From Patescibacteria group bacterium (GTDB lineage Bacteria; Patescibacteriota; Minisyncoccia; Phycocordibacterales; SBAW01): 64,000 nucleotides of DNA. Every line of letters begins with the position of its first letter. Position 1 is the stretch's first letter. The translations under genes were made by a program, and so were the position numbers. The stretch spans positions 4,736-68,735 of the forward strand of contig JAGWOD010000001.1 of NCBI GenBank assembly GCA_028871115.1, written 5' to 3'. The notes under the pieces are model-generated. The model ran no database searches. It saw only the letters and a list, made by a program, of their open reading frames with translations, and was not told the DNA's origin. Below, piece after piece: positions 8,977 through 22,657 of this stretch.

Positions 8977-10769
8977 TGATGAAAGTCTCCCGTACCTGGC
9001 TTCAGAAATTCTTCGATACACCGCTGCCGGAAGCAGCAGAGCTCGCCGAGGCTCTCACCTTCCATGCCTTTGAAATAGAAGGAATTGAAGAAAACGATAT
9101 CCTCGATGTAAAGGTCACACCCAACCGAGGGCATGATTGCCTCTCGCACAGAGGCATCGCCAAAGAGCTTTCTGCTATCCTTTCTATTCCACTCGCCCAC
9201 GACCCGTTTTCCGAAACTAAGAGTCTCTCGCTGAAGACAAAAGAGGTAACGGTATCGGTTGAAAATGAAACCCTCTGTCCCCGCTATATTGCAGCAATAA
9301 TCCGGGGGGTGAGGGTAGGACCTTCGCCGCGGTGGCTCTCCCTGCGCCTTGAAGCACTTGGCCAGCGATCTATAAATAACGTGGTTGATGCTACGAATTT
9401 CGTGATGTTCAATCTAGGGCAACCACTCCATGCATTTGATGCTGCAAAGCTCAAGAAGCGAGATGATACATGGAGCATTGCGGTTCGTAATGCTCGGGAA
9501 GGGGAGCGGATACACACTCTTGATGGGAAAGATTATACACTCACTTCATCTATTCTTGTCATCTCCGATCCAAACGCCGATGAAGCCATAGGTATTGCGG
9601 GAGTAAAAGGAGGAATGCCTGCCGCTATTACTGAGGAGACGGTTGATATCATTATCGAGTCGGCGAATTTCAATGGACCCTGTGTACGCAAAGGAGCCCA
9701 GACTCTCAAGTTGCGCACCGATGCTTCCTCGCGGTTCGAGCAGGATTTGAGCCCGGAACTCGCGGGTTACGCAATGAACTCGGTAGTTGAGCTTATACGT
9801 ACGCTCGCGGGGGGAGAAATTCTAGGAGTTGTTGATAAGTACCCGAACCCACAGAAGAAGCAAGAAGTTGCTGTCTCTCTTTCTAAAATCAACGCCATTC
9901 TCGGTACCACCTTTGATGACGATAAGATTGCGAATATTTTTTCGCGTCTTGGATTTTCTTTCAAACATGATGGGAAAGAATTTTTGGTTACAGCACCGCT
10001 AGAGCGTCTCGACATTCTTCTTCCTGAGGATCTTGCCGAGGAAGTGGGTCGCATTGCCGGATATGATGAAATTCCTCTCACTCCTCTTCCACCCCTTGGA
10101 GGGGAACCCGAGATCAATCAGAGTTTCTCTGCCGTTGAGCGCGCCCGAGAGGATTTCATCTCAAAAGGATATTCCGAAGTCATTACTTCTGTGTTTGCCG
10201 ATGCGGGGGAGCGTACCGTGGCAAATAAAATTGACGGTGTGCGGCCCTACTTGCGGAGTACCCTTACAGATAATTTGCAGAGTACCCTCAAGAGAAACCT
10301 TCCCAATAAAGAGCTCCTCGGTCTCAAAGAAATAAAACTCTTCGAAGTAGGACCTGTGTGGCGGAATGGGAAAGAAGTGTTAATGGTCGGCAGCGCGAGT
10401 GAAAAAGGGCGAGTAAATGAAGTACCGCTATCTCTTGAAGCTCATGTTCCACACTATGATACCCCGTCCCTCTCTCAACTGCGCCGATATCGTCCATTCT
10501 CTCGCTTTCCCTATATTGTGAGAGATGTAGCGCTATGGGTTCCAAACGGAACCAATGCTGAGGAAGTACTCCATCGTATTCAGGAGCATGCAGGATCTCT
10601 TGTCGTGAACAGCTATCTCTTCGACACCTTCAAAAAAGGAGAAAAAGAATCTCTTGCGTTTCGGCTTATATTCCAATCCTTTGAACGCACCCTTGAAGAT
10701 TCCGAGGCAAATCAAGTGATGGAAAAGATACACACTTTTTTGCGTGCGCAAGGGTTTGAAATACGTTGA
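8976..10769 (+). CDS. pheT: Phenylalanine--tRNA ligase beta subunit (short)
   Basis: MKVSRTWLQKFFDT N-terminus, a B3/4 domain and a FDTF anticodon-binding C-terminus. It is overlapped with pheS at the TGATG junction. Confidence 0.85.
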   Translation: MMKVSRTWLQKFFDTPLPEAAELAEALTFHAFEIEGIEENDILDVKVTPNRGHDCLSHRGIAKELSAILSIPLAHDPFSETKSLSLKTKEVTVSVENETLCPRYIAAIIRGVRVGPSPRWLSLRLEALGQRSINNVVDATNFVMFNLGQPLHAFDAAKLKKRDDTWSIAVRNAREGERIHTLDGKDYTLTSSILVISDPNADEAIGIAGVKGGMPAAITEETVDIIIESANFNGPCVRKGAQTLKLRTDASSRFEQDLSPELAGYAMNSVVELIRTLAGGEILGVVDKYPNPQKKQEVAVSLSKINAILGTTFDDDKIANIFSRLGFSFKHDGKEFLVTAPLERLDILLPEDLAEEVGRIAGYDEIPLTPLPPLGGEPEINQSFSAVERAREDFISKGYSEVITSVFADAGERTVANKIDGVRPYLRSTLTDNLQSTLKRNLPNKELLGLKEIKLFEVGPVWRNGKEVLMVGSASEKGRVNEVPLSLEAHVPHYDTPSLSQLRRYRPFSRFPYIVRDVALWVPNGTNAEEVLHRIQEHAGSLVVNSYLFDTFKKGEKESLAFRLIFQSFERTLEDSEANQVMEKIHTFLRAQGFEIR

Positions 10770-10863: not shown

Positions 10864-12936
10864 ATGGCTCAAAAAAGCAAAGAAGAAAAAGCGGCTGCAA
10901 AGACCGCAGTGGGCGCCTATAGCGCGGAATCTATCACGGTTCTTGAGGGGCTTGAGGCGGTACGCCGCCGTCCGGGCATGTACATAGGTACTACCGGATC
11001 CGATGGTCTCCACCACCTTATCTGGGAAGTCTTTGATAACTCTCGCGACGAGGCGATGGGAGGTTTCGCGGACGACATTGAGGTAGTGCTTCTGCCGGAA
11101 AATAGTATTCGTGTGGCGGACAATGGCCGCGGTATTCCGGTTGATGTCCACAAACAGACGAAGGTCTCCGCGCTTGAGACGGTCATGACTACTCTACACG
11201 CGGGGGGAAAGTTCGGAGGAGACGGCTATAAAGTCTCAGGAGGTCTCCACGGGGTTGGTGTCTCGGTGGTGAACGCTCTCTCCGTGTATGTGCAGGCCGA
11301 GGTACATCGGGACGGAGGCGTATATATGCAGGAGTACGCGCGGGGTAAAAAGAAAGCGTCGGTAAAAAAAATCGGAGCCTCGAAACTCCACGGCACCGTA
11401 ATTACTTTTTCCGCTGATCCGGAGATCTTCAATAAAATTGAATATGACTTCGATAAAATAGTGGCGCATCTACGAGAGCAGGCCTATCTCGTGAAGGGGC
11501 TGCGTATCAGCGTCATTGATGCTCGCGGAGGGAGCCTCAAATCTCCAGAGGCTGGGAAGGATCTCTACATACGCTCCCTACTTTCCGATTGTCCTTCCAT
11601 GACCTTCTACTTTGAAGGGGGACTTAAATCACTGGTTTCCTACTACAACCGCTATCAGAAACCTATCCATAAAAATATTTTCTATGTTGAGAAAGAGGAA
11701 GACAAGGTAGATGTCGAGATCTCCCTTCAGTACGTCGATGATGTAGCGGCACGCATGGTTGCGTTCGCCAATAATATTTACAACAGCGAAGGTGGAACGC
11801 ACGTGACAGGTTTTAAGACCGCACTCACGCGCTCGCTTAATGCCTATGCCCGTAAAAATAATCTCGCGAAGGAAAGCGATGAGAATTTTACGGGGGAGGA
11901 TGTCCTCGAAGGCCTCACGGCAGTCGTATCCGTAAAAATGCGGGAGATCCAATTTGAAGGCCAGACAAAGGGTAAATTGGGAAGCGTAGAAGCACGTGGC
12001 GCTGTTGAAACGGTATTTAGCGAAGCGTTTAGTTATTTCCTTGAAGAGAATCCGGATGATGCTCGGGCCATTATCGGCAAATCACTCCTTGCCATGAAAG
12101 CGCGCAAGGCAGCAAAGGCCGCAAAGGATTCAGTTCTGCGCAAAGGAGCCCTTGAAGGATTTGGACTGCCGGGCAAGCTCGCCGATTGTCAGAGCAAAGA
12201 GGCCGAAGAGTCTGAACTTTTCATTGTGGAGGGAGATTCCGCTGGAGGCTCAGGCAAACAGGGGCGTGATCGCCGTACCCAGGCGATTCTTCCACTGCGC
12301 GGGAAGATCCTCAACGTGGAGCGGGCCCGGCTCGATAAGATGCTTGCCTCCCAGGAAATCAGATATCTTATCCTCGCACTTGGCACTGCGATTGGTGACG
12401 TATTCGACCTATCGAAGCTTCGGTATCACAAAATCATCATTGCGACCGATGCCGACGTCGATGGAGCACATATCAGGACACTCCTCCTCACGCTTTTTTA
12501 CCGGCACTTCCGCCCAGTCATAGAAGGAGGATATCTCTATATTGCGCAACCGCCGCTTTATAAAATAAAGCGCGGTAAGGAAATTTTGTATGCATACTCT
12601 GACGATGACAAAATGAAACTACTCGGCAAAGATGCAGAAATCTCCGAGGAACCCCCCGAAGCGGGAGAGGAGAAGGACCCTGAGGCAGGGGAGGATGTTT
12701 CTGCAAAAGGGAAAAAACAAAAGATCTCCATTCAGCGCTACAAAGGTCTCGGCGAGATGAATCCTGAGGAGTTGTGGGAGACAACCATGGACCCTGCGCG
12801 CCGACAACTTAAACTTGTGACCATCGAAGATGCACAGGACGCTGACAGAGTGTTCGATATCCTTATGGGTGAGGATGTCCTATCACGTAAATCATTTATT
12901 CAAAGTAACGCCAAGCTTGCCAACCTCGATATATAA
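10864..12936 (+). CDS. gyrB: DNA gyrase subunit B
   Basis: GHKL ATPase (GLHHLIWEVFDNSRDEA), Toprim (EGDSAGGS) and a QRYKGLGEM tail. Confidence 0.9.
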   Translation: MAQKSKEEKAAAKTAVGAYSAESITVLEGLEAVRRRPGMYIGTTGSDGLHHLIWEVFDNSRDEAMGGFADDIEVVLLPENSIRVADNGRGIPVDVHKQTKVSALETVMTTLHAGGKFGGDGYKVSGGLHGVGVSVVNALSVYVQAEVHRDGGVYMQEYARGKKKASVKKIGASKLHGTVITFSADPEIFNKIEYDFDKIVAHLREQAYLVKGLRISVIDARGGSLKSPEAGKDLYIRSLLSDCPSMTFYFEGGLKSLVSYYNRYQKPIHKNIFYVEKEEDKVDVEISLQYVDDVAARMVAFANNIYNSEGGTHVTGFKTALTRSLNAYARKNNLAKESDENFTGEDVLEGLTAVVSVKMREIQFEGQTKGKLGSVEARGAVETVFSEAFSYFLEENPDDARAIIGKSLLAMKARKAAKAAKDSVLRKGALEGFGLPGKLADCQSKEAEESELFIVEGDSAGGSGKQGRDRRTQAILPLRGKILNVERARLDKMLASQEIRYLILALGTAIGDVFDLSKLRYHKIIIATDADVDGAHIRTLLLTLFYRHFRPVIEGGYLYIAQPPLYKIKRGKEILYAYSDDDKMKLLGKDAEISEEPPEAGEEKDPEAGEDVSAKGKKQKISIQRYKGLGEMNPEELWETTMDPARRQLKLVTIEDAQDADRVFDILMGEDVLSRKSFIQSNAKLANLDI

Positions 12937-12965
12937 AAAACTCCCGCTTTTAAGCGGGAGTTTTT
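12935..12965. terminator. Bidirectional Rho-independent terminator between gyrB (+) and the convergent surface-protein gene (-)
   Basis: AAAAAA-CTCCCGC-TTTTAA-GCGGGAG-TTTTT. Confidence 0.6.
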
Positions 12966-12978
12966 AGGTTGCAGGGAT

Positions 12979-14028
12979 TTAGTAGATTGTGGCGCTCGCT
13001 GTATTGTTTGCGAAATTCACGTCACCAGTCCTCTCTCCGGGGTCAGCCGTTATAGTGACCACTCCACTGGAGAGGTAGCCGCCGTTTCCTTGCGCTCCGT
13101 AGCAGGGAGCGGGGTACCCGATTGGATAGACAGGTGCCGTAGGATTGCAGTTTGACTCCTGGGAGTAGATCGGAGCCCTCCAGTTGAGCGTGTATACGAT
13201 ATAGCCTCCTGGAGGAAGCGCCTGTTGGGGTGCTGAGATGTAGGTATATGCAGGGGAGAGAGGAAGCGAAGCGGTGAAGATCCAGCCAGCGGGGGCAGTG
13301 AGAGAGCCCGCATTTCCTATTTCGAACTCCACGCTGCCCTGGCCTGCCGAGAGGATGCGCACTGACAGATCCACGCCTGCTACTTCCTGTGCGGGGTAAC
13401 CTTTGGAGACGCCTTTTACTGAGTAGCCTTTAGTTGCCGGAGCGGTTGCCACGGGGGCAGTTGTTTTTGTGGGTGCGATGGTTACCGACGCGCTTCCTGT
13501 CGCGGTTATGGCCCCTGTCGCGAGATTGACGGCTGAGACACTGATTTCTGTTGCCACATTCTTTTCTCCTGGGACATGCGGAATAAGGAGCATGTGCTCG
13601 GTCGCGTCCACATAATTAAAGGGAGTATTGCAGGGAACCGCCTGATATGCGCCGGTAGGAATAGGAGCATCAAGCGAAAGGCCGCTCGTACATGCGTAGG
13701 AAATTTCGTACCCGTATGCTCCCTCAGAGGGAGCAGCACTGTTTATGCTGTGCGTCCAAGAAACCATAAATGCGCTGCCTGAGGGCAGAGTACTTGAGGC
13801 GATCGAAACTACTACCACCTGATTCACTTGAGCTTGAGTGGGGGTGCTTGTCGATGTTTGAGGAGAAAACGGTTGGGAGAATAGGGAAGAGAACCCACCG
13901 CCGATCTCTCCAAGTACATTAGGGATATTGGAGGCAACGATAATGATGCCCCAAGCCCCGAGAATGAGGAGTAGTACCAGTCCGACTACGGTAAGGATGC
14001 GGAGCAGCTCCGTTCGCGTTTTTTCCAT
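12979..14028 (-). CDS. N-terminally membrane-anchored cell-surface protein with a C-terminal CARDB-like domain
   Basis: N-terminal TM helix, then Ser/Thr/Ala-rich Ig-like segments, then a C-terminal ...NAGSLTAPAGW...DPGERTGDVNFANNTASATI segment that resembles the CARDB fold. Confidence 0.5.
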   Translation of the reverse strand: MEKTRTELLRILTVVGLVLLLILGAWGIIIVASNIPNVLGEIGGGFSSLFSQPFSPQTSTSTPTQAQVNQVVVVSIASSTLPSGSAFMVSWTHSINSAAPSEGAYGYEISYACTSGLSLDAPIPTGAYQAVPCNTPFNYVDATEHMLLIPHVPGEKNVATEISVSAVNLATGAITATGSASVTIAPTKTTAPVATAPATKGYSVKGVSKGYPAQEVAGVDLSVRILSAGQGSVEFEIGNAGSLTAPAGWIFTASLPLSPAYTYISAPQQALPPGGYIVYTLNWRAPIYSQESNCNPTAPVYPIGYPAPCYGAQGNGGYLSSGVVTITADPGERTGDVNFANNTASATIY

Positions 14029-14100
14029 GGTGCCGCGAAGATATCATTGATAATCAATACTGTCAAGAACCCTTACTTGACAGCAACGTTATTTTAGGGT

Positions 14101-14904
14101 ATGCTTTCCAAAGCCTTGCAAATGCGAGGTAAAAGGAGCACCGTCACGGTGGATAGAAAACGCTCCTCCGTGAAGGACCCTCATAAGCACATAGACATGG
14201 ATTTGAAAGGAAAAGGCATCGTACTGGAGATAGAGGAACATCGCGTCGGCTTTTCGCTGGCGTTCATCCTTATTTTCACGGGAAGTTTTCTTTTTCTCGC
14301 GGTCCTCAACGTACTGCCCGATCCGACGGCGCAGTGGAATGAGGAGCACGGCGGTACGCCGGTTCCTGAGTACTCGCAGCCTTCATCGGTTGCAAGTACT
14401 ACTTCTTCTGCGCAGGGAAATACTGCCACTACCTCGGTAGCTGCTTTCTACGAGCAACCGGTCCGTATTGTCATTGATTCTATATCGCTTGATGTGGCGG
14501 TCTCGAACCCAACATCAACCAATGTCGGTGTCCTCGACAGCTGGCTTCTTAAGGGAGCAGTGCGCTATCCGACCTCCGCACTCTTGGGACAGTTTGGCAC
14601 CGTGCTCCTCTTCGGGCACTCGAGCTATCTCACTATCCCAGGGGATCAACCGTATAAGACCTTTGACGGTATACAGAATCTTCGAACAGGCGATGAGATC
14701 AGCGTCTATTCCTCAACCAAGGAATACCGCTACCGCGTGACTGGGGTGCGCCAGGCGAACGTCAACGATCAAAATACGTCGACGATTGAATTGCCCTCCA
14801 ACGGCCAATTCCTCACCCTCATTACTTGTGATTCCTTTGCAACTAAATCTGACCGATTTGTTGTCACTGCTCAGTTTGTAGGAACCTATTCGCTCGCGAG
14901 TTAA
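14101..14904 (+). CDS. Sortase (transpeptidase), membrane-anchored
   Basis: TM segment, then the catalytic triad context FGHSS ... LRTGDEISV ... LTLITC ... DRFVV (His, TLxTC Cys, Arg). The true start may be an internal Met, since a TTGACA-N16-TATGCT promoter overlaps 14077-14105. Confidence 0.75.
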   Translation: MLSKALQMRGKRSTVTVDRKRSSVKDPHKHIDMDLKGKGIVLEIEEHRVGFSLAFILIFTGSFLFLAVLNVLPDPTAQWNEEHGGTPVPEYSQPSSVASTTSSAQGNTATTSVAAFYEQPVRIVIDSISLDVAVSNPTSTNVGVLDSWLLKGAVRYPTSALLGQFGTVLLFGHSSYLTIPGDQPYKTFDGIQNLRTGDEISVYSSTKEYRYRVTGVRQANVNDQNTSTIELPSNGQFLTLITCDSFATKSDRFVVTAQFVGTYSLAS

Positions 14905-15068
14905 TCGCGGACGGATAGGTCCTTGCAACCCGGCATCCTCATATCTACGGACTCCGTACACATGAGTATGCCGTGAAGTGCATGGGCTCGGGCAAAGCGC
15001 CCGAAGCACCTTTCCATCAACCCCGCTTGGCTATGTTCTAGCCAGGCACTTTCTGGAGGTTAACGACA

Positions 15069-15602
15069 ATGGCTACTACGAAAAACGGTAAGTCGAAGAA
15101 GACTACTCCGAACCCCAACCTGATCAAGGTGATGTTCGAGGGCGTCCTCGATGTCTTCTTGCCCAAGAACTTCTCGACTCTCGCGCCTGCGGCCCCCGGC
15201 CCGGCTCCGACTCCACCGAAAAGTCCTCCGGTTCCGCCGGTGCATATCGGCAGTTCGAGGCACATCGGCTGGCCTGCCGTCGCGCTGGCCCTGTTGGCGC
15301 TCATCGGCGTGATCTGGCTCATCGACAACGGCTTTCCTCACCCGATCCGTCACATCGCGCTTCCCATGATTGGCGGCACGCAGAAGACAGCGGAAGTGAC
15401 CAGTACTCCGGAATGCCAGCGCGGCTGGTCCTGGAATTCGGCTCACGGCCGCTGCGAGTCTCCGACGCCTCAGAGCGAGCTCAAGCAGTACGATGTCGCG
15501 AAGGCGAATTGCAAGCCCGGCGACATCAAGCCAGTCAAGGTCAGCGTTCCGGGTCATCCGGATGTGGAGCGGATCGTGATGCAGAAGTGCGTCTACCGCT
15601 AA
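15069..15602 (+). CDS. Hypothetical Pro-rich single-pass membrane protein with a Cys-containing extracytoplasmic domain (GC-rich island)
   Basis: GGAGG SD at 15053-15057. The protein has a Pro-rich cytoplasmic stretch, a TM helix and a Cys-containing C-terminal domain. Local GC is clearly above the window average. Confidence 0.45.
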   Translation: MATTKNGKSKKTTPNPNLIKVMFEGVLDVFLPKNFSTLAPAAPGPAPTPPKSPPVPPVHIGSSRHIGWPAVALALLALIGVIWLIDNGFPHPIRHIALPMIGGTQKTAEVTSTPECQRGWSWNSAHGRCESPTPQSELKQYDVAKANCKPGDIKPVKVSVPGHPDVERIVMQKCVYR

Positions 15603-15614
15603 CTTTCAACAGGA

Positions 15615-15667
15615 CTCGGCGGAGTAGGTGTTTACACACCTACTCCGCCGAGCTCCATTTTTTTCTT
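15615..15667 (+). terminator. Strong Rho-independent terminator
   Basis: Perfect ~16-bp stem CTCGGCGGAGTAGGTGT / ACACCTACTCCGCCGAG followed by a T7 run. Confidence 0.7.
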
Positions 15668-15748
15668 GTGTTGGACTGTTTGTTCGCAATGACGTTGCGA
15701 ATAAGAAGACCCACACAAGGGTCGGCAAGCGCTACAAGGAGGAATCCA

Positions 15749-16285
15749 ATGCGCACCTTCGCCGCCCTCTTGGGAGGGCTGATGTTCTTTTCGCTTATCT
15801 GTTTCCCTTCCGTGACGTCGGCCGACGGCATGCCCGTACCCCAGCAGCAGGAATGCTCCGGATGTACGGCGTATGAGAATGCCCACGCCAAACCGAAGCC
15901 CACGAAGATCCGCCTTGTCTGTTATAAGTTCGAACAGCAGGCAAAGGATGCGGTGGTATTGACCATCCTCGATGTTCGAGGAATGACGCTTCCGCAGGAC
16001 CCCACAAAGCTCGATGCGCTTCTGAGCCAGCTCATTGCGGGCAAAGATCACATCGTTCATCGAGCTGCGTCTAAGGTCGCCAAGCCGCTCGACGAATATT
16101 GTATCGGGAAGTGGCGTGTGATCGAGGTCCTGAAGGAGGGCTACCTGGTCATTCTCTGCAACGGTCTGCCGGGCGGAAACAAGAAGGCCGTATTCAGGCC
16201 CGCCGACAGTCAGGCGATCCTGAACGGGGAGTATAGGCGGGCGTGCCTCGCGAATCATTGCGAACACGCTACGCACTCGCTCTAA
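15749..16285 (+). CDS. Hypothetical secreted Cys-containing protein (GC-rich island)
   Basis: AAGGAGG SD at 15736-15742, 6 nt before the ATG. There is a signal peptide (MRTFAALLGGLMFFSLICFPSVTSADG) and several Cys. The long upstream extension in the ORF track (from 15413) overlaps the terminator and is rejected. Confidence 0.45.
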   Translation: MRTFAALLGGLMFFSLICFPSVTSADGMPVPQQQECSGCTAYENAHAKPKPTKIRLVCYKFEQQAKDAVVLTILDVRGMTLPQDPTKLDALLSQLIAGKDHIVHRAASKVAKPLDEYCIGKWRVIEVLKEGYLVILCNGLPGGNKKAVFRPADSQAILNGEYRRACLANHCEHATHSL

Positions 16286-16293
16286 AGTCGGTT

Positions 16294-16335
16294 TGTCTCG
16301 GGCGGCCCAAAACCGCCCGAGACACCCCTATTTTA
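16294..16335 (+). terminator. Rho-independent terminator after the island
   Basis: GTCTCGGGCGG-CCCAAAA-CCGCCCGAGAC hairpin followed by a T-rich tract. Confidence 0.55.
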
Positions 16336-16392
16336 AGTACTTGACAAAACGAATGATTCATTTATAATTACTTTTGTTCAAATTAGATTGTT

Positions 16393-17601
16393 ATGAAAAA
16401 CACCTCCAAAAATAACGTTTCTTTTCTTTTTAAAGCCACAGTAATGGCAGTTATCTCTATTGGCATGTTTGCTGGTTCTCTTCAGTTTGCCCAAGCGCAG
16501 GAGACTCTGGATGGAGGCTGTTGCGGCTCAACTGGCTGGGACACCACTGGGGGTACAGACTCCTACGCTCCTTCGACGGGTTGGGATACTACGTCAGGAA
16601 CTGATTCCTATGTTCCTAGCACCGGCTGGGACACCACTGCGGGTACAGATTCCTATGTACCCTCAACTGGTTGGGACACGATTTCAGGAACTGATTCTTA
16701 TGTGCCGTATAGTTCGGCTCCGACCTATACCGCTTCAGGTGACTATACAGCCACCGGTAGCTACCTCCCTTCATATGGATATAGTTCAGCTTCTTACGGT
16801 GGGTATGCTCTCGGAGGCGCGTTTGGCTACAGCAATCCTTCTTACAGTCGCGTCTACGCACCGACGACGGTACTCACCAATACCATCGATAACGGGAACA
16901 GCTGTACTGCTATAAATAGCTGCAATACGAATACTACGGTCTCATCGCCGACAACCATCAGCTATAACAATTCTTCGCCGAGCTACCCTCTTTACCCCAT
17001 TTATCCTAGCTACCCTTCGTATCCGACCTATCCTTCGGCATATCAAGCTCCGACCTGCTCAATCCAAGTTTCTCCCTCAGTAGTCGCCTATGGGCAAGGA
17101 GTGACCCTCTCATGGACAAGTTCTGGAGCTACGTCAGGCAATATCTCTAATATTGGAAACGTCGCTCCGTCGGGCACTACCTACCTCAACGCGTACCAGA
17201 CGATTGTCTACAATGGCACCTTCTATGGTCCGGCTGGCTCTACGAATTGCTCGGCTACTATATCCGTCTCTGGATACAACAATCCCGCTCCGTACGTAAC
17301 CCTCAGTCAAGTGCCCTACACTGGCCTTGATCTGGGACCGACCGGCACCGCGCTCTACTGGCTCTTCCTTGTCCTTTGGTGTGCTATCGCTGCCTACTTT
17401 ATAGCGGTAAAGAAAATCCACATCCGAATCATCAATTGGTCTCGGGGATTCTTCCTCGGTGACGCGGATACGGTAGCTCATCCAGCCTACCAAGGGGCAC
17501 ACTCCAGCGCTGCGAAGCATTCGCTAGCCCACACTGTTCAGTCAGGAGTTGATACGGTAGATAATTTTATCCTCGCTCAGGTTCATCGCGGACATCGGTA
17601 A
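16393..17601 (+). CDS. Secreted repeat-containing surface protein with a C-terminal VPYTG motif plus hydrophobic segment plus basic patch (sortase-substrate-like)
   Basis: Signal peptide, then 4x 15-aa repeat STGWDTTxGTDSYxP, a Tyr/Ser/Pro-rich low-complexity region (PSYPSYPTYP) and an Ig-like domain. The C-terminus reads ...LSQVPYTGLDLGPTG-TALYWLFLVLWCAIAAYFIAV-KKIHIRI..., followed by ~55 more residues. Confidence 0.6.
   Translation: MKNTSKNNVSFLFKATVMAVISIGMFAGSLQFAQAQETLDGGCCGSTGWDTTGGTDSYAPSTGWDTTSGTDSYVPSTGWDTTAGTDSYVPSTGWDTISGTDSYVPYSSAPTYTASGDYTATGSYLPSYGYSSASYGGYALGGAFGYSNPSYSRVYAPTTVLTNTIDNGNSCTAINSCNTNTTVSSPTTISYNNSSPSYPLYPIYPSYPSYPTYPSAYQAPTCSIQVSPSVVAYGQGVTLSWTSSGATSGNISNIGNVAPSGTTYLNAYQTIVYNGTFYGPAGSTNCSATISVSGYNNPAPYVTLSQVPYTGLDLGPTGTALYWLFLVLWCAIAAYFIAVKKIHIRIINWSRGFFLGDADTVAHPAYQGAHSSAAKHSLAHTVQSGVDTVDNFILAQVHRGHR
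16528..16707 (+). repeat. Intragenic tandem repeat, 4 x 45 bp organised as an ABAB 90-bp duplication
   Basis: Units 1/3 and 2/4 are nearly identical at the DNA level (ggctgggacaccactg.gggtacaga.tcctac / ggttgggatac.ac.tcaggaactgattc.tatgt). Confidence 0.8.
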
Positions 17602-17632: not shown

Positions 17633-17674
17633 AACACACACAATCCCAGCGGCAATCCGCTGGGATTGTGTGTT
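17633..17674. terminator. Bidirectional terminator hairpin between the convergent surface-protein gene and thrS
   Basis: 18-bp perfect stem AACACACACAATCCCAGCGG-CAAT-CCGCTGGGATTGTGTGTT. Confidence 0.6.
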
Positions 17675-17686
17675 GAAAGAGCCCTC

Positions 17687-18934
17687 TTATCCTAAACGCC
17701 TTGTTGCTTCTTCGCTTAGTCGCGAGAGTATCTCTTGTATGGGCAGTGCTCCAATTTTACCCTTGTCGCGACTCTCGAGAGTCGCTGTTTCGTTTTGCAT
17801 TTCTTCATCTCCGACGACAAGTAAATAGGGGATTCTGGTCGTTTTTGCTTCACGGATCTTTTTGCCAAGCGTCTCGTCGCTTTCATCGACCTGTGCTCGC
17901 AATCCCGCTCCCTCGAGCGCTCCTAAAACCTCACGAGCAAATTGCTTATGCTTTTCACCAATTGGCAAGACGCGCACCTGAACGGGCGAGAGCCAGAGGG
18001 GGAGATTGCCTGCTAGGTGCTCAAGTAGAACAGCAGTGCATCGCTCGAGAGAACCTGTTATTGCGCTGTGAATCATCACAATACGCTCTTTCTCGCCTTT
18101 TTCATTGATACACGTGAGATCGAAGCGTTCAGGAATATTGAAATCGAGTTGAATAGTCGCCACCTGATGGTTCCGACCGATTGAGTCGGTAGCCATGAAA
18201 TCGAGTTTGGGACCATAGAGAGCCGCTTCTCCTGGCGCTTCGAAGTAGTCGGCTTTTCTCGTCTGTGCAATCTCGCGTAGTGCATTCTCAGCATTGTTCC
18301 AAATAGCCGCTGTTCCAAGATATTTTTCAGGATGGGCAGGATCGTGGAAGGAAAGGCGAGCACGCAATTTAAAACCAAAGGTACTCCAGAATGTGTCGAC
18401 GATATCCCAAATACGAAGAAATTCCTCGCGAACCTGTGTTTGTCTGCAGAAAACATGGCTATCATCCTGGGTAATCGAGAGTACTCGGGTGAGACCACCG
18501 AGTTCGCCCGATTGTTCGTCGCGATAGACCATTGTTGTCTCCGCGTAGCGCTGCGGCATCTCGCGGTAGGAATGAGGGCGACGATCGAATATTTGAGTAT
18601 GGTGAGGACAGTTCATGGGTTTGAGAGCATACTCTCGCCCTTCACGCGATGTAATACGGAAGAGATCTTCGCCGAATTTTTCCCAGTGTCCGGAGCGTTC
18701 GTAGAGCTCCCGCTTGGTGATGTGGGGGATCGTCACGCGTTGATAGCCATGTCGAGACCGTAATTCCCAGACGTATCGATCGAGTTCTTGGCGCAGTATT
18801 GTTCCGCGCGGGGTCCACAGAGGTAACCCAGAACCTACAAGTTCGGAAAAGGTAAAGAGATCAAGTTCGCGTCCGATAGTGCGATGATCGCGCTCATCCG
18901 CTCCTTCCTGACTTTGGGGCGTTTTTTGTACCAT
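17687..18934 (-). CDS. thrS: Threonine--tRNA ligase, catalytic plus anticodon-binding domains only (no N-terminal TGS/editing domains)
   Basis: ALKPMNCPHHTQIF class II motif and ThrRS-type catalytic core. At 415 aa it is well short of the ~640 aa of canonical bacterial ThrRS. Confidence 0.85.
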   Translation of the reverse strand: MVQKTPQSQEGADERDHRTIGRELDLFTFSELVGSGLPLWTPRGTILRQELDRYVWELRSRHGYQRVTIPHITKRELYERSGHWEKFGEDLFRITSREGREYALKPMNCPHHTQIFDRRPHSYREMPQRYAETTMVYRDEQSGELGGLTRVLSITQDDSHVFCRQTQVREEFLRIWDIVDTFWSTFGFKLRARLSFHDPAHPEKYLGTAAIWNNAENALREIAQTRKADYFEAPGEAALYGPKLDFMATDSIGRNHQVATIQLDFNIPERFDLTCINEKGEKERIVMIHSAITGSLERCTAVLLEHLAGNLPLWLSPVQVRVLPIGEKHKQFAREVLGALEGAGLRAQVDESDETLGKKIREAKTTRIPYLLVVGDEEMQNETATLESRDKGKIGALPIQEILSRLSEEATRRLG

Positions 18935-19480: not shown

Positions 19481-22400
19481 TTACAATGCCTTGAGTGCTT
19501 CTGCCACGAGGGAGAGTTCACCGTTTCGATTTGAGAGACGACCTTTGAGCGCGATACAGGAATCTGGCTTAAGAAGTGCACGGTATTCAGTGAAGGATTT
19601 TGGGAATACCACTGCCTCTATTGAGCCGTTAAAATCGGCTATCTTTATAAACGCCATTTGATCGCCGGCCTTGGTAAGTACGGTACGCATTTCCTCGATG
19701 ATTCCGCCGGTAACTGCGCTCATGCCGGGCTGGAGTTTCTCACGCAGTTCCTCGATAGTCATGGAACGCTTTGCGAGTTTTTCGCGCACCCGCTCAAGCG
19801 GGTGCCCCGAGACATACAAACCAAGGAGTTCCTTCTCCCATTGCAATTTCTCCTCGAGAGGTGCGGGCGGGGAGGGGAAAAGAGCAAGGTCATTGATTTC
19901 TCCTAAGCCCGCGAAAAGCGACTGTTGGGAACTTTCTCCTGCAGAACGATGATATTCGAGAATGCGTTCAATATTGGCCAACAAATTACCACGTTCACCA
20001 AAGCTATCGAGCGCGCCACACTGGATAAGTGCCTCCAGAGCTTTTTTATTGAGCGCTTGCTCTTGTACGCGCCGCAAAAAATCAGAAAGAGAAACAAAAC
20101 GGCCGTGAAGTTTTCGTTCGGTAATAATCGCTCCAGCGACTCCCTGGCCAAAATTCTTTATTGAATAAAGACCGAAACGAATTGCATCTCGGTTCGTTCC
20201 CGAAGCCAGTCGTGCCGCTTTCTCTGTTTTCTCTTCGCTCGCGCCAAGCACCACGGTGAAGTCCCCGAAACTTTCATTGATATCGGGAGGCAGGACTGGG
20301 ATGCCCATGCGCTTGCATTCAGTGACCATAATGCCTGTCGTATCAACATCGCCTGCTTCCGCCGTGAGGATAGCTGCCATGTACTCGATGGGATAGTTGG
20401 CTTTCATATACGCCGTTTGATAGGCAACCTTGCCGTAACTTGCTGCATGCGCTTTGTTGAATCCGTACGCAGCGAATGGTTCGATAAGCTTCCAGAGACG
20501 CTCGGCTCGTTGTTTGCCCATCCCATTTTGTATCGCGCCTGCGATAAGCTTTTCTTTCTGAGCCTCCATTTCAGCAGGTATCTTCTTGCCCATCGCCTTG
20601 CGTAGGGCATCAGCTTCAAGCCAGGAATATCCCGCAAGCCGCACTGCGATGAGGAGCACATCATCCTGATAGGTAATGACTCCGTAGGAGCGCTCAAGGA
20701 TGTCTTCCATGCGAGGATCGAGATAGGTAATGAGGGCAGGGTTATGTTTGCGCTCAATATACGCAGGGATCATTTCCATAGGGCCGGGGCGGAAGAGTGC
20801 GACCATGGCATTGATGTCGTGGATCGTAGTCGGCCGGAGCTCCTTGAGGAAGCGAGTCATACCTGACCCGTTGAGCTGGAAGGTCCCTTCAGTCTCTCCG
20901 TTGGCGAGCATCTCAAACGTTTTGCGGTCATTGAGGGGCACATTCTCTATGTCGATCTTAATGCCCCGTGTTTTCTCGACGAGCTTTACCGAACTGGCGA
21001 GTATAGAAAGGTTGCGGATGCCAAGGAAATCGAATTTCAGAAGACCCACGTCCTCGACCGAGTACATATCGTACTGAGTGATTATCTTGCCGCCCTTCGG
21101 ATCTTTTTGGAGCGGTGTGTAATGGACCAGAGTCTCTGGCGCGATGACAACGCCTGCCGCGTGCACGCTGATATGCCTTGCACACCCCTCGATTTTTCGG
21201 CCGAGGTCGATAATCTCCCGCGTCTCCTCTTCTTCTTTGTACATTTTTGCGAGTTCGGGATTTTCTTTGAGAGCTCGTTCGAGCGTCATGGGAAATCCTT
21301 GCGAACCGAAGGGCACCTCTTTTGCGATCCGATCGCCAAGTCCGTAGGCATAGCCAAGCGCGCGTGCCACATCCCGCACGACGCCCCGGGCGAGCATCGT
21401 TCCGAAAGTTCCTATCTGCGCCACATGCGTTTCTCCGTATTTTTTGCGCGCATATTCAATGACTTCGTCGCGTCGCGTATCGGCGAAGTCCATGTCGATA
21501 TCAGGAGCCTTCGGCCGCTCCGGGTTAAGGAAACGCTCGAACGGAAGCTGGTAGGTGATTGGATTAACGTTAGTGATGAAAGTGAGGTAGGAGATAAGAG
21601 AGCCGGCAGCGCTGCCGCGGGTTGTGGTGAGGATGCCGTGTTCGCGTGCAAAGGAAAGAAGATCCGCCACCACCAAGAAATAGGGTGCAAATCCTTTTTC
21701 CGCTATGATGCTGAACTCGTAGTCTACTCGCTTGCGCATCTCTAGCGTTGGCTCCATGCCCCGCAGGGAAAATCCTCTCTCGATGAGGGAGTGCAATTCT
21801 TTTTCGTAGGAGGAGCCTCCACTAAGAGGGAAGGCCGGAAATACCCATGATCCTAAGTCGAATTCGAGCGAACAACGCTCAGCGATTACGGATGCATTCT
21901 CAAGCGCCTCCGGAATATCTGCAAAAAGTTTCTCCATTTGTTCGGCACTCTGGAGAGAGAAATCCTCTTCATTGCCGCCGATATCTCCTTCTTCGGAAGG
22001 TCCCCGATTCTCTATAGCTCGCATCACAGTCCAGGCGCGACGATCATCGGGGGAGAGATAGAAGATTTCCTGGCCTGCAACGAGAGGTATATGTTCTCGA
22101 ATAGCTGACTCTCGAAGTGTTTCCATGGCGGCGTCGTGTCCATCGATTTCGGGATGAACTGAAACTTCAAGGTAGACGTTATCGTCCCCGAATATTGAGC
22201 GATATTCATCGACAACTTTCTTTATACGCTTGTTTTCGTTACTGCGGAGAATAGAAGTGATTTCTCCTCCGAGCGACGGGATGATGGAAATAAGTCCCTC
22301 AGCGTATTTCTTGAGTAACTCCCGCGAGACGACCGGAGAAGGGGAGTCGCTTAGATGAGATTCTGTGACAAGCGCGAGTAGATTTCGGTAGCCAGTTTCG

Positions 22401-22657
22401 TTTTGAGCAAGGAGGACAAGGCGGTGTTTATTCTCCCCGCTCTGCAGAGTCGCGTCGAGGCCGATAATAGCTTTGAGCCCCGCATGCTCGCATTCTTTAT
22501 AGAATTCGATAGCGCCATATAAATTATCTCTGTCAGTAAGCGCCAAACTTTTGCATCCGGCCGCTTTTGCCGCAGCCACGAGATCAGGAATTTTTGGCAG
22601 AGCCTGCAGAAGCGAGTAGTGGGAGTGGACGTGTAAGTGGGTAAAGCGGCCAGGCAT
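19481..22657 (-). CDS. dnaE: DNA polymerase III alpha subunit
   Basis: PHP domain N-terminus (HLHVHSHYSLL), polymerase core and a C-terminal OB fold. Confidence 0.9.
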   Translation of the reverse strand: MPGRFTHLHVHSHYSLLQALPKIPDLVAAAKAAGCKSLALTDRDNLYGAIEFYKECEHAGLKAIIGLDATLQSGENKHRLVLLAQNETGYRNLLALVTESHLSDSPSPVVSRELLKKYAEGLISIIPSLGGEITSILRSNENKRIKKVVDEYRSIFGDDNVYLEVSVHPEIDGHDAAMETLRESAIREHIPLVAGQEIFYLSPDDRRAWTVMRAIENRGPSEEGDIGGNEEDFSLQSAEQMEKLFADIPEALENASVIAERCSLEFDLGSWVFPAFPLSGGSSYEKELHSLIERGFSLRGMEPTLEMRKRVDYEFSIIAEKGFAPYFLVVADLLSFAREHGILTTTRGSAAGSLISYLTFITNVNPITYQLPFERFLNPERPKAPDIDMDFADTRRDEVIEYARKKYGETHVAQIGTFGTMLARGVVRDVARALGYAYGLGDRIAKEVPFGSQGFPMTLERALKENPELAKMYKEEEETREIIDLGRKIEGCARHISVHAAGVVIAPETLVHYTPLQKDPKGGKIITQYDMYSVEDVGLLKFDFLGIRNLSILASSVKLVEKTRGIKIDIENVPLNDRKTFEMLANGETEGTFQLNGSGMTRFLKELRPTTIHDINAMVALFRPGPMEMIPAYIERKHNPALITYLDPRMEDILERSYGVITYQDDVLLIAVRLAGYSWLEADALRKAMGKKIPAEMEAQKEKLIAGAIQNGMGKQRAERLWKLIEPFAAYGFNKAHAASYGKVAYQTAYMKANYPIEYMAAILTAEAGDVDTTGIMVTECKRMGIPVLPPDINESFGDFTVVLGASEEKTEKAARLASGTNRDAIRFGLYSIKNFGQGVAGAIITERKLHGRFVSLSDFLRRVQEQALNKKALEALIQCGALDSFGERGNLLANIERILEYHRSAGESSQQSLFAGLGEINDLALFPSPPAPLEEKLQWEKELLGLYVSGHPLERVREKLAKRSMTIEELREKLQPGMSAVTGGIIEEMRTVLTKAGDQMAFIKIADFNGSIEAVVFPKSFTEYRALLKPDSCIALKGRLSNRNGELSLVAEALKAL

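Follow-up and report, generated by a model that had tools for sequence, protein, structure and literature searches.

A sortase and a neighbouring PYTG protein as a candidate dedicated pair in the core genome of Paceibacteria

A 64,000-nucleotide stretch from a Patescibacteria group bacterium (assembly GCA_028871115.1, contig JAGWOD010000001.1, positions 4,736 to 68,735 of the forward strand), hereafter the window, encodes a sortase and, downstream of it, a secreted protein whose C terminus resembles a sorting signal built around VPYTG. The question raised by this locus is whether the sortase acts on that protein and reads that motif. We think it likely, with a probability of roughly 0.6, that the two form a dedicated sortase-substrate pair, with a sorting signal specific to the lineage, in the core genome of Paceibacteria (Parcubacteria), because the invariant P-x-T-G core lies outside a transmembrane (TM) helix, the topology is substrate-like, the sortase is a near-obligate neighbour and relatives with short tails exist.

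The sortase itself is well supported. The product, 244 residues from the NCBI GTG start at 14170, is identical to the NCBI entry 'MAG: sortase [Patescibacteria group bacterium]' and matched the Pfam family PF04203 at 67.6 bits (cut-off 26.6, E = 1.1e-18), with the match spanning sortase residues 123-258 against a profile of 125 positions. The catalytic residues are His150 in LFGHSS (14617-14619), Cys220 in TLITC (14827-14829) and Arg229 in SDRFV (14854-14856); these segments line up with the catalytic triad of the class A enzyme SrtA from Bacillus anthracis (2kw8), and all three residues are invariant across 27 orthologues. An AlphaFold2 (AF2) model with a mean predicted local distance difference test score (pLDDT) of 83 contains a TM helix at residues 17-45, a disordered linker and a catalytic barrel domain at residues 99-241, and Foldseek matched this model to more than 100 sortase chains at E values of about 1e-10. 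The TM anchor maps to 14251-14316. The original prediction of a bona fide sortase with His, TLITC Cys and Arg in place was thus borne out: judged from its sequence, this is a genuine, membrane-anchored sortase with predicted transpeptidase activity. The TM helix is also conserved, with invariant Phe at positions i, i+4 and i+8 (F28, F32 and F36).

Classification, which had been proposed as a check, gave a different outcome. Using class-specific hidden Markov models (HMMs; NCBIfam NF033745-8, TIGR01076, TIGR03064 and others), no cut-off for classes A-F was reached, the scores being 42.3 bits for class E (cut-off 160), 39.7 for class C (160), 31.5 for class D (165), 27.3 for class F (166) and 13.3 for class B (154), and the generic sortase model TIGR01076 scored 37.5 bits against a cut-off of 39.35. 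Foldseek scores were near-equal for classes E, A, C and D, showing no preference, and a class assignment from structure was dropped for that reason.

The candidate substrate is a 402-residue protein (385 residues from the NCBI start at 16444, identical to 'hypothetical protein KGJ34_00120'), with a signal peptide that extends to 16497 and ends in FAQA before a Q. All parts of the predicted tripartite C terminus were found in place: VPYTG at 17311-17325; a hydrophobic 20-residue segment, ALYWLFLVLWCAIAAYFIAV, at 17350-17409, which corresponds to the TM helix and begins 8 residues after the G; and KKIHIRI at 17410-17430, followed by 56 residues (17431-17598) of predicted cytoplasmic tail that include, near their end, the conserved motif VDNFILAQVHR (17557-17589). 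In the AF2 model, about 200 disordered residues precede an immunoglobulin (Ig)-like domain, an unstructured linker with PYTG, a long TM helix and a short terminal helix (374-380 in the 385-residue numbering); PYTG stands five residues before the TM helix, in a linker devoid of secondary structure. The combination of motif and TM helix occurs once in the window.

Comparison with homologues (n = 101) revealed ectodomains that are barely alike and an extended C-terminal block common to the proteins, with the consensus P-Y-[V/I]-[T/S]-L-[S/T]-x-[V/I]-P-Y-T-G-[L/F]-[D/E]-[L/F]-G-x-x-G-x-x-x-Y-W ... A-Y-L ... K-[K/R]-V-Q-N. A 54-column profile of this module, searched against 1.84 billion representative proteins (clusters at 50% identity), matched 1055 clusters at E <= 1e-3 (643 of them at E <= 1e-10), and exact PYTG was present in 109 of 109 newly returned representatives. 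As a control for circularity, modules were also located by the downstream flank alone, G[LF][DE]..G..G...[YF]W, and P-Y-T preceded the flank in 156 of the 157 modules found in this way. The first position of the motif is V in 65%, I in 25% and L in only 3%, with A, M and T likewise rare; x is always Y. Conservation extends beyond the pentapeptide, with L at -4 in 100%, G at +7 in 98% and YW at +14/+15 in 95-98%. No model for the module exists in Pfam (2025 copy) or NCBIfam (2026 copy), and the module is joined to ectodomains of about 150 to 1100 residues with varied content, whether disordered, Ig-like or CARDB.

The pairing of sortase and PYTG gene recurs across genomes. Scanning one genome per GTDB species with the sortase alignment yielded 80 loci from Adlerbacteria, Kaiserbacteria, Nomurabacteria, Paceibacterota and Minisyncoccia, with the recurrent order gyrB (+), a 349-residue protein (-), the sortase (+), zero to five small open reading frames (ORFs), one or more PYTG proteins (+), thrS (-) and dnaE (-). 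Where 4.5 kb or more follow the sortase (55 loci), a same-strand PYTG ORF lay within 6 kb downstream in 53, at a median gap of 1330 nt. The two exceptions, L071 and L075 (both at about 9950-10600), are paralogous sortases with GHSTSL and LVTCNT variants and a different genomic context; judged by eye, their neighbours are M23 peptidase-like and thiol-disulfide oxidoreductase-like genes, and a PYTG gene is missing from the vicinity. In the reverse direction, metagenome contigs were searched with the module only. Among the 26 loci whose contig extends 5 kb or more upstream of the PYTG gene, 23 carry a sortase on that side, and the other three come from a subgroup in whose relatives the sortase is 5-5.5 kb upstream. 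thrS followed downstream in 42 of 47 metagenome loci, and the divergent variants L161 and L162 keep the sortase-PYTG pairing.

These counts give a positive answer to the check attached to the original prediction, whether homologous sortases in related genomes adjoin PYTG proteins, and together with the near-invariance of P-Y-T-G they lend strong backing to VPYTG as the recognition motif of the neighbouring sortase, which, judging from sequence and gene order, it probably is. The locus had been described as accessory; judging from its gene order, it is instead a core block conserved across Paceibacteria, from gyrB to thrS and dnaE. PYTG proteins appear confined to this one locus, at one to three per genome; at least two PYTG genes are present in 17 loci, some having two or three. 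The absence of the motif from the rest of the proteome had been named as grounds for rejection, which is not valid because a dedicated pair is expected at a single locus; for such a pair, conservation across genomes is the applicable test.

If the two proteins do work together, the PYTG protein would leave the cytoplasm by way of its Sec signal peptide and stay anchored in the membrane through its C-terminal helix, the KK/KR residues being on the inner side, and the catalytic domain of the sortase would sit outside the cell on its N-terminal TM anchor. P-x-T-G is the core of known sortase signals. The enzyme would recognise [V/I]-P-Y-T-G-[L/F]-[D/E]-[L/F]-G in the unstructured linker about 8 residues before the helix and cut between T and G, a site that we infer from the motif. 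The disordered, lysine-free ectodomain, rich in Thr, Ser, Tyr and Gly, would then be passed to a nucleophile of the envelope, most likely a peptidoglycan precursor. The C-terminal fragment, from G-LDLG...YW through the TM helix to a cytoplasmic tail whose last motif is D-x-F-I-x-x-Q-I-x-R, would remain in the membrane and, because it is conserved, probably has a function of its own.

Several observations weigh against a dedicated pair. The sortase falls in no class of known specificity, and the 402-residue protein had no match to the anchor models PF00746 and TIGR01167 at E <= 0.1 (Pfam, NCBIfam). PYTG proteins appear to lie at one locus only, so that the usual evidence of many unrelated proteins sharing one signal is missing. 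Conservation covers both the TM helix (YW...AY) and the cytoplasmic tail, which can run to 360 residues, unlike the disposable tails of classic substrates, and this fits a stable two-sided membrane protein; this is not explained by simple wall anchoring and keeps alternatives open. Within the helix, the near-invariant YW stands at the outer edge and AY lies deeper.

The residues past the basic patch had been noted as a departure from sortase substrates. They are present, but their weight was underrated, since they are, from their recurrence in relatives, a conserved feature and not a minor deviation: 104 of the 109 representatives end in D-x-F-[IV]-x-x-Q. Three kinds of tail occur. The majority, including the window protein, have 80-130 residues after the G and end in D-x-F-I-x-x-Q-I-x-R; a second kind has 41-61 residues after the G, giving a near-classic signal; and a third has 245-360 residues with a conserved helical domain of about 100 residues. 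Two proteins have the helical domain and the terminal motif together. For the helical domain, no Pfam match was found, the best PDB match had E = 0.06 and the protein database returned unnamed fragments only; a resemblance to the tau/gamma subunit of pol III (E = 0.2) was not significant and was discarded. The strong conservation of TM helix and terminal motif, the long tails with their helical domain, the conserved positions far beyond the pentapeptide and the missing anchor-model match would all suit a module of PYTG, TM helix and tail that permanently anchors a two-sided membrane protein. PYTG would then be an uncut structural or binding motif, and the sortase would work on other substrates, or on none here, and would be adjacent because both act on the envelope.

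What speaks against such a permanent anchor is the motif, which is exactly the sortase core P-x-T-G and is invariant, together with the adjacency of the two genes (53 of 55 loci, and 23 of 26 in the reverse search). The short-tail relatives are a further difficulty. A textbook layout of motif, TM helix and basic residues, with the end of the protein within 30-45 residues, is present in L026, L109, P0132 and P0219, and the textbook-layout signals in about 2.3 Mb of related sequence are only those of such short-tail PYTG paralogues and relatives; neither there nor in the window was an alternative classic substrate found. Finally, in L160 the part of the module after PYTG is encoded by a separate gene, implying that the halves can exist apart, although this is a single case in 157. 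On balance, we consider a permanent anchor unlikely.

In the divergent locus L160 (2907-10176), two classic short-tail proteins, one with TPETG and one with VPYTG, precede a separate gene. That gene opens with GFDLGTTGNGIFW (GFDLG..G...FW), the portion of the module downstream of PYTG, and goes on to encode a TM helix and a long tail; this 15-kb contig yielded no sortase. As a natural sign of cleavage products, the split module is anecdotal. In L162 (170-3974), a sortase is followed by a 197-residue secreted protein and then by a PYTG protein that ends 33 residues past the motif; the next ORF encodes the helical tail domain, which other lineages have fused to their PYTG proteins, indicating gene fission.

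The sortase might also process PYTG for ends other than wall anchoring, either ligating the ectodomain to another protein, such as the CARDB-like protein or the small proteins encoded between sortase and substrate, or freeing or activating the membrane fragment in maturation or signalling. In favour of this are a CARDB-like partner that is conserved in 64 of 80 loci and a slot of secreted proteins that invariably separates the two genes; the cytoplasmic tail, together with its gene fissions, suggests independent function, and conservation is poor in the ectodomain but highest in the putative remnant. We nevertheless regard such uses as distinctly improbable: no acceptor motif was identified, the tail domain is without a recognisable homologue, and sortases by default anchor their substrates to peptidoglycan.

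A bolder extension of the dedicated pair, which we put forward as speculation and think unlikely to hold as a whole, is that cleavage between PYT and G is a maturation step yielding two functional products. One would be a wall-linked, lysine-free surface polymer rich in Tyr, Ser and Thr, and the other a conserved membrane fragment (G-LDLG...YW-TM) whose tail, in the form of the terminal D-x-F-I-x-x-Q-I-x-R peptide or the helical domain of about 100 residues, reports surface assembly to the cell interior or couples the two. Recognition would be partly intramembrane, between the F-x3-F-x3-F face of the sortase and the YW...AY helix of the substrate, and the whole would amount to a sortase-dependent transmembrane signalling or assembly device, present throughout a major branch of the candidate phyla radiation (CPR). 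The invariant Phe face and the YW...AY residues do hint at recognition within the membrane. A precedent for a functional fragment of TM helix and tail is the C-pep of Streptococcus gordonii, a membrane remnant that is reportedly sensed by a two-component system after sortase A cleavage. That remnant is short and ordinary, whereas the putative PYTG remnant is the best-conserved part of its protein and may hold the helical domain of about 100 residues.

The ectodomain bears on a further alternative, in which the locus is a pilus operon assembled by a class C-type sortase and the PYTG protein is the pilin. The sortase does adjoin its putative substrate, some loci have two or three PYTG genes, and class C was the second-best, if weak, match among the class models (39.7 bits). 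However, the window ectodomain (16498-17310), rich in Thr, Ser, Tyr and Gly, contains no lysine and a single arginine, and the ectodomains of 128 of 185 relatives are likewise lysine-free (overall, 65% Thr/Ser/Tyr/Gly/Pro/Asn and 0.8% lysine), so that the nucleophile of a pilin motif is missing; lysine-based pilin polymerization is thereby excluded. The ectodomain is also mostly disordered. Its Ig-like beta-sandwich (17056-17274, AF2 pLDDT ~97) is optional, being found only in some orthologues and missing from most in the alignment, and Foldseek returned generic Ig-like matches for it, with no pilin, CnaA or CnaB fold. As the class C cut-off of 160 bits is also far away, a pilus is extremely improbable, and the pilin role was set aside as effectively refuted by the missing lysine and the generic Ig fold. 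Other features of the ectodomain are a tandem 45-nt repeat of about 3.8 copies (16534-16703, + strand; Tandem Repeats Finder) that encodes (S/T)TGWDTTxGTDSY(V/A)P, and CTAINSCNT at 16903-16929, an instance of a C-T-x-N-S-C-N-T motif that is kept among otherwise unalignable orthologues.

How the putative dedicated pair relates to known systems can be judged from shared and divergent features. With LPXTG sorting, as in the SrtA-protein A system of Staphylococcus aureus and across classes A-F, it shares a Cys transpeptidase that is anchored in the membrane and has the His-Cys-Arg triad (TLxTC), and a substrate in which an N-terminal signal peptide and a P-x-T-G core are combined with a hydrophobic helix and cytoplasmic-side basic residues. 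It differs in having V or I at the first position, an invariant Tyr at x, conserved flanks on both sides and a TM helix of conserved sequence; in the 56 residues past the basic patch (up to 360 in relatives), which end in a conserved motif; and in a sortase that reaches no class cut-off and a substrate that PF00746 and TIGR01167 leave unmatched. Dedicated pairs are familiar from SrtB and IsdC with NPQTN, from the class D sortase of B. anthracis with LPNTA and from class E with LAXTG. These share with the PYTG pair a specialised sortase beside one or a few substrates with a non-canonical, lineage-specific signal, but they are accessory or condition-specific and operate alongside a housekeeping SrtA, whereas the PYTG pair lies in a core block (gyrB...thrS-dnaE) found class-wide and its signal has a conserved cytoplasmic extension. 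Exosortase/PEP-CTERM, archaeosortase/PGF-CTERM and rhombosortase/GlyGly-CTERM likewise combine a short motif, a TM helix and a basic cluster with a dedicated enzyme, and they too are lineage-specific and were found in silico. Their enzymes, however, are polytopic membrane proteins outside PF04203, and their signals end the protein and occur on many proteins per genome, as opposed to one to three at a single locus for PYTG.

Sortases are enriched in CPR bacteria (PMC6744442), and generic 'sortase motifs' have been mentioned for CPR surface proteins (PMC5220378). In the literature searched, of which coverage was incomplete, we found no description of a PYTG, VPYTG or IPYTG sorting signal. The cell envelope of CPR bacteria (Patescibacteria), and the way in which these episymbionts display surface proteins, are poorly understood. 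If the pairing is functional, [V/I]PYTG[L/F][D/E][L/F]G would be a new sorting signal and the sortase would represent a new lineage beyond classes A-F, while the PYTG protein, with its consensus promoter, would probably be a major surface protein of Paceibacteria. The pairing would also provide a searchable annotation marker with more than 1000 clusters and pose the testable mechanistic question of why a conserved cytoplasmic domain follows the sorting signal, and a sortase that is strict for P-Y-T-G could serve as an orthogonal protein-ligation tool. Candidate peptides are included with the features of the locus in Table 1.

Table 1. Coordinates of the locus and its surroundings, numbered from the first nucleotide of the window, with two candidate peptides.
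Feature	Position	Strand	Basis or remark
gyrB	10864-12936	+	
Bidirectional hairpin terminator at the gyrB (+)/CARDB-like gene (-) boundary	12936-12965		AAAAAACTCCCGCTTTTAAGCGGGAGTTTTT, read directly; canonical, A/T runs on both sides
CARDB-like gene, 349-residue membrane-anchored protein	12979-14028	-	ORF
Divergent promoter region between CARDB-like gene and sortase	14029-14169		
Sortase	14170-14904 (ORF opens at 14101)	+	
Orphan ORF, 177 residues, in GC-rich stretch	15069-15602	+	ORF
Hairpin after orphan ORF	15615-15652		17-bp stem and T-run
Gene for small secreted Cys-containing protein	15749-16285 (ORF opens at 15413)	+	
Terminator hairpin after second small ORF	16294-16324		12-bp stem and T-run
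Putative sigma-70-type promoter before PYTG gene	16341-16368	+	TTGACA-16-TATAAT; 12/12 match
PYTG protein gene	16393-17601	+	ORF
C-terminal module PYVTLSQ-VPYTG-LDLGPTGT-ALYW...AY...-KK	17278-17439	+	Profile search, position statistics
Hairpin in convergent gap between PYTG gene and thrS	17637-17674		17-bp stem; read directly
thrS	17687-18934	-	
dnaE	19481-22657	-	
Candidate substrate peptide for sortase residues 95-244			PYVTLSQVPYTGLDLGP
Candidate cleavage-reporter peptide core			LSQVPYTGLDLG

The divergent partner of the sortase was described in the original prediction as a membrane-anchored CARDB-domain protein on the minus strand. The anchor and orientation hold, the 349-residue protein having an N-terminal TM helix at residues 8-32 (nt 13933-14007) and an Ig/CARDB-like ectodomain, but the domain is undetectable in the window copy, for which CARDB (PF07705) gave no Pfam match at E <= 0.1. 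CARDB was matched in 15 of 35 orthologues (best E = 2e-6, HMM scan), and the orthologue in L161 carries a precomputed CARDB match; the name is thus applied to the window protein by orthology, as a putative assignment. Homologues always lie immediately before the sortase, in the opposite orientation.

Each gene of the locus looks like its own transcription unit, with separate hairpins and a consensus promoter before the PYTG gene. The gap that separates the CARDB-like gene from the sortase has a promoter-like site on each strand, at 14077-14105 (+) and 14066-14038 (-); each matches 10 of 12 positions and is a consensus match only. The hairpins said to bound the locus as strong terminators are both present, and the first has the canonical form; the second, by contrast, is without a T-tract on the + strand and has only TTTT on the - strand, the thrS side.

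A GC-rich two-gene island had been described between the sortase and the PYTG gene. The GC content is indeed elevated, at 0.57-0.63 over ~14950-16300 compared with 0.505 for the window and reaching 0.63 around 15100-15550, and two ORFs are present. However, this slot is filled in relatives by fast-evolving small genes, most of which encode secreted Cys-containing proteins, and only the first ORF is an orphan. Its product has a Pro-rich N terminus, one TM helix and a Cys-containing C terminus, with no Pfam or NCBIfam match and no homologue in the 80 related loci. Clustering grouped the second ORF with diverged homologues that occupy this slot in nine other loci. Its start is likely at 15749 (MRTFAALLGG..., a predicted signal peptide), which is favoured because the strong hairpin after the orphan ORF lies inside the longer reading frame. 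A foreign GC-rich island was not supported as such, as the slot is variable in all relatives and averages about 2 GC points above the locus mean across 59 loci (+6 for the window slot), and the second ORF has positional homologues. The GC-rich stretch contains long ORFs on both strands, with 15060-15557 (-) overlapping the orphan ORF, and the + strand reading of the latter is preferred only for its downstream terminator and the orientation of its neighbours.

Beyond the PYTG gene, the thrS product of the window is 415 residues long and starts at the catalytic core, lacking the TGS or editing N terminus. In related loci, thrS occurs either in a short form (~403-415 residues) or in a long form of ~580-600 residues with tRNA_SAD.

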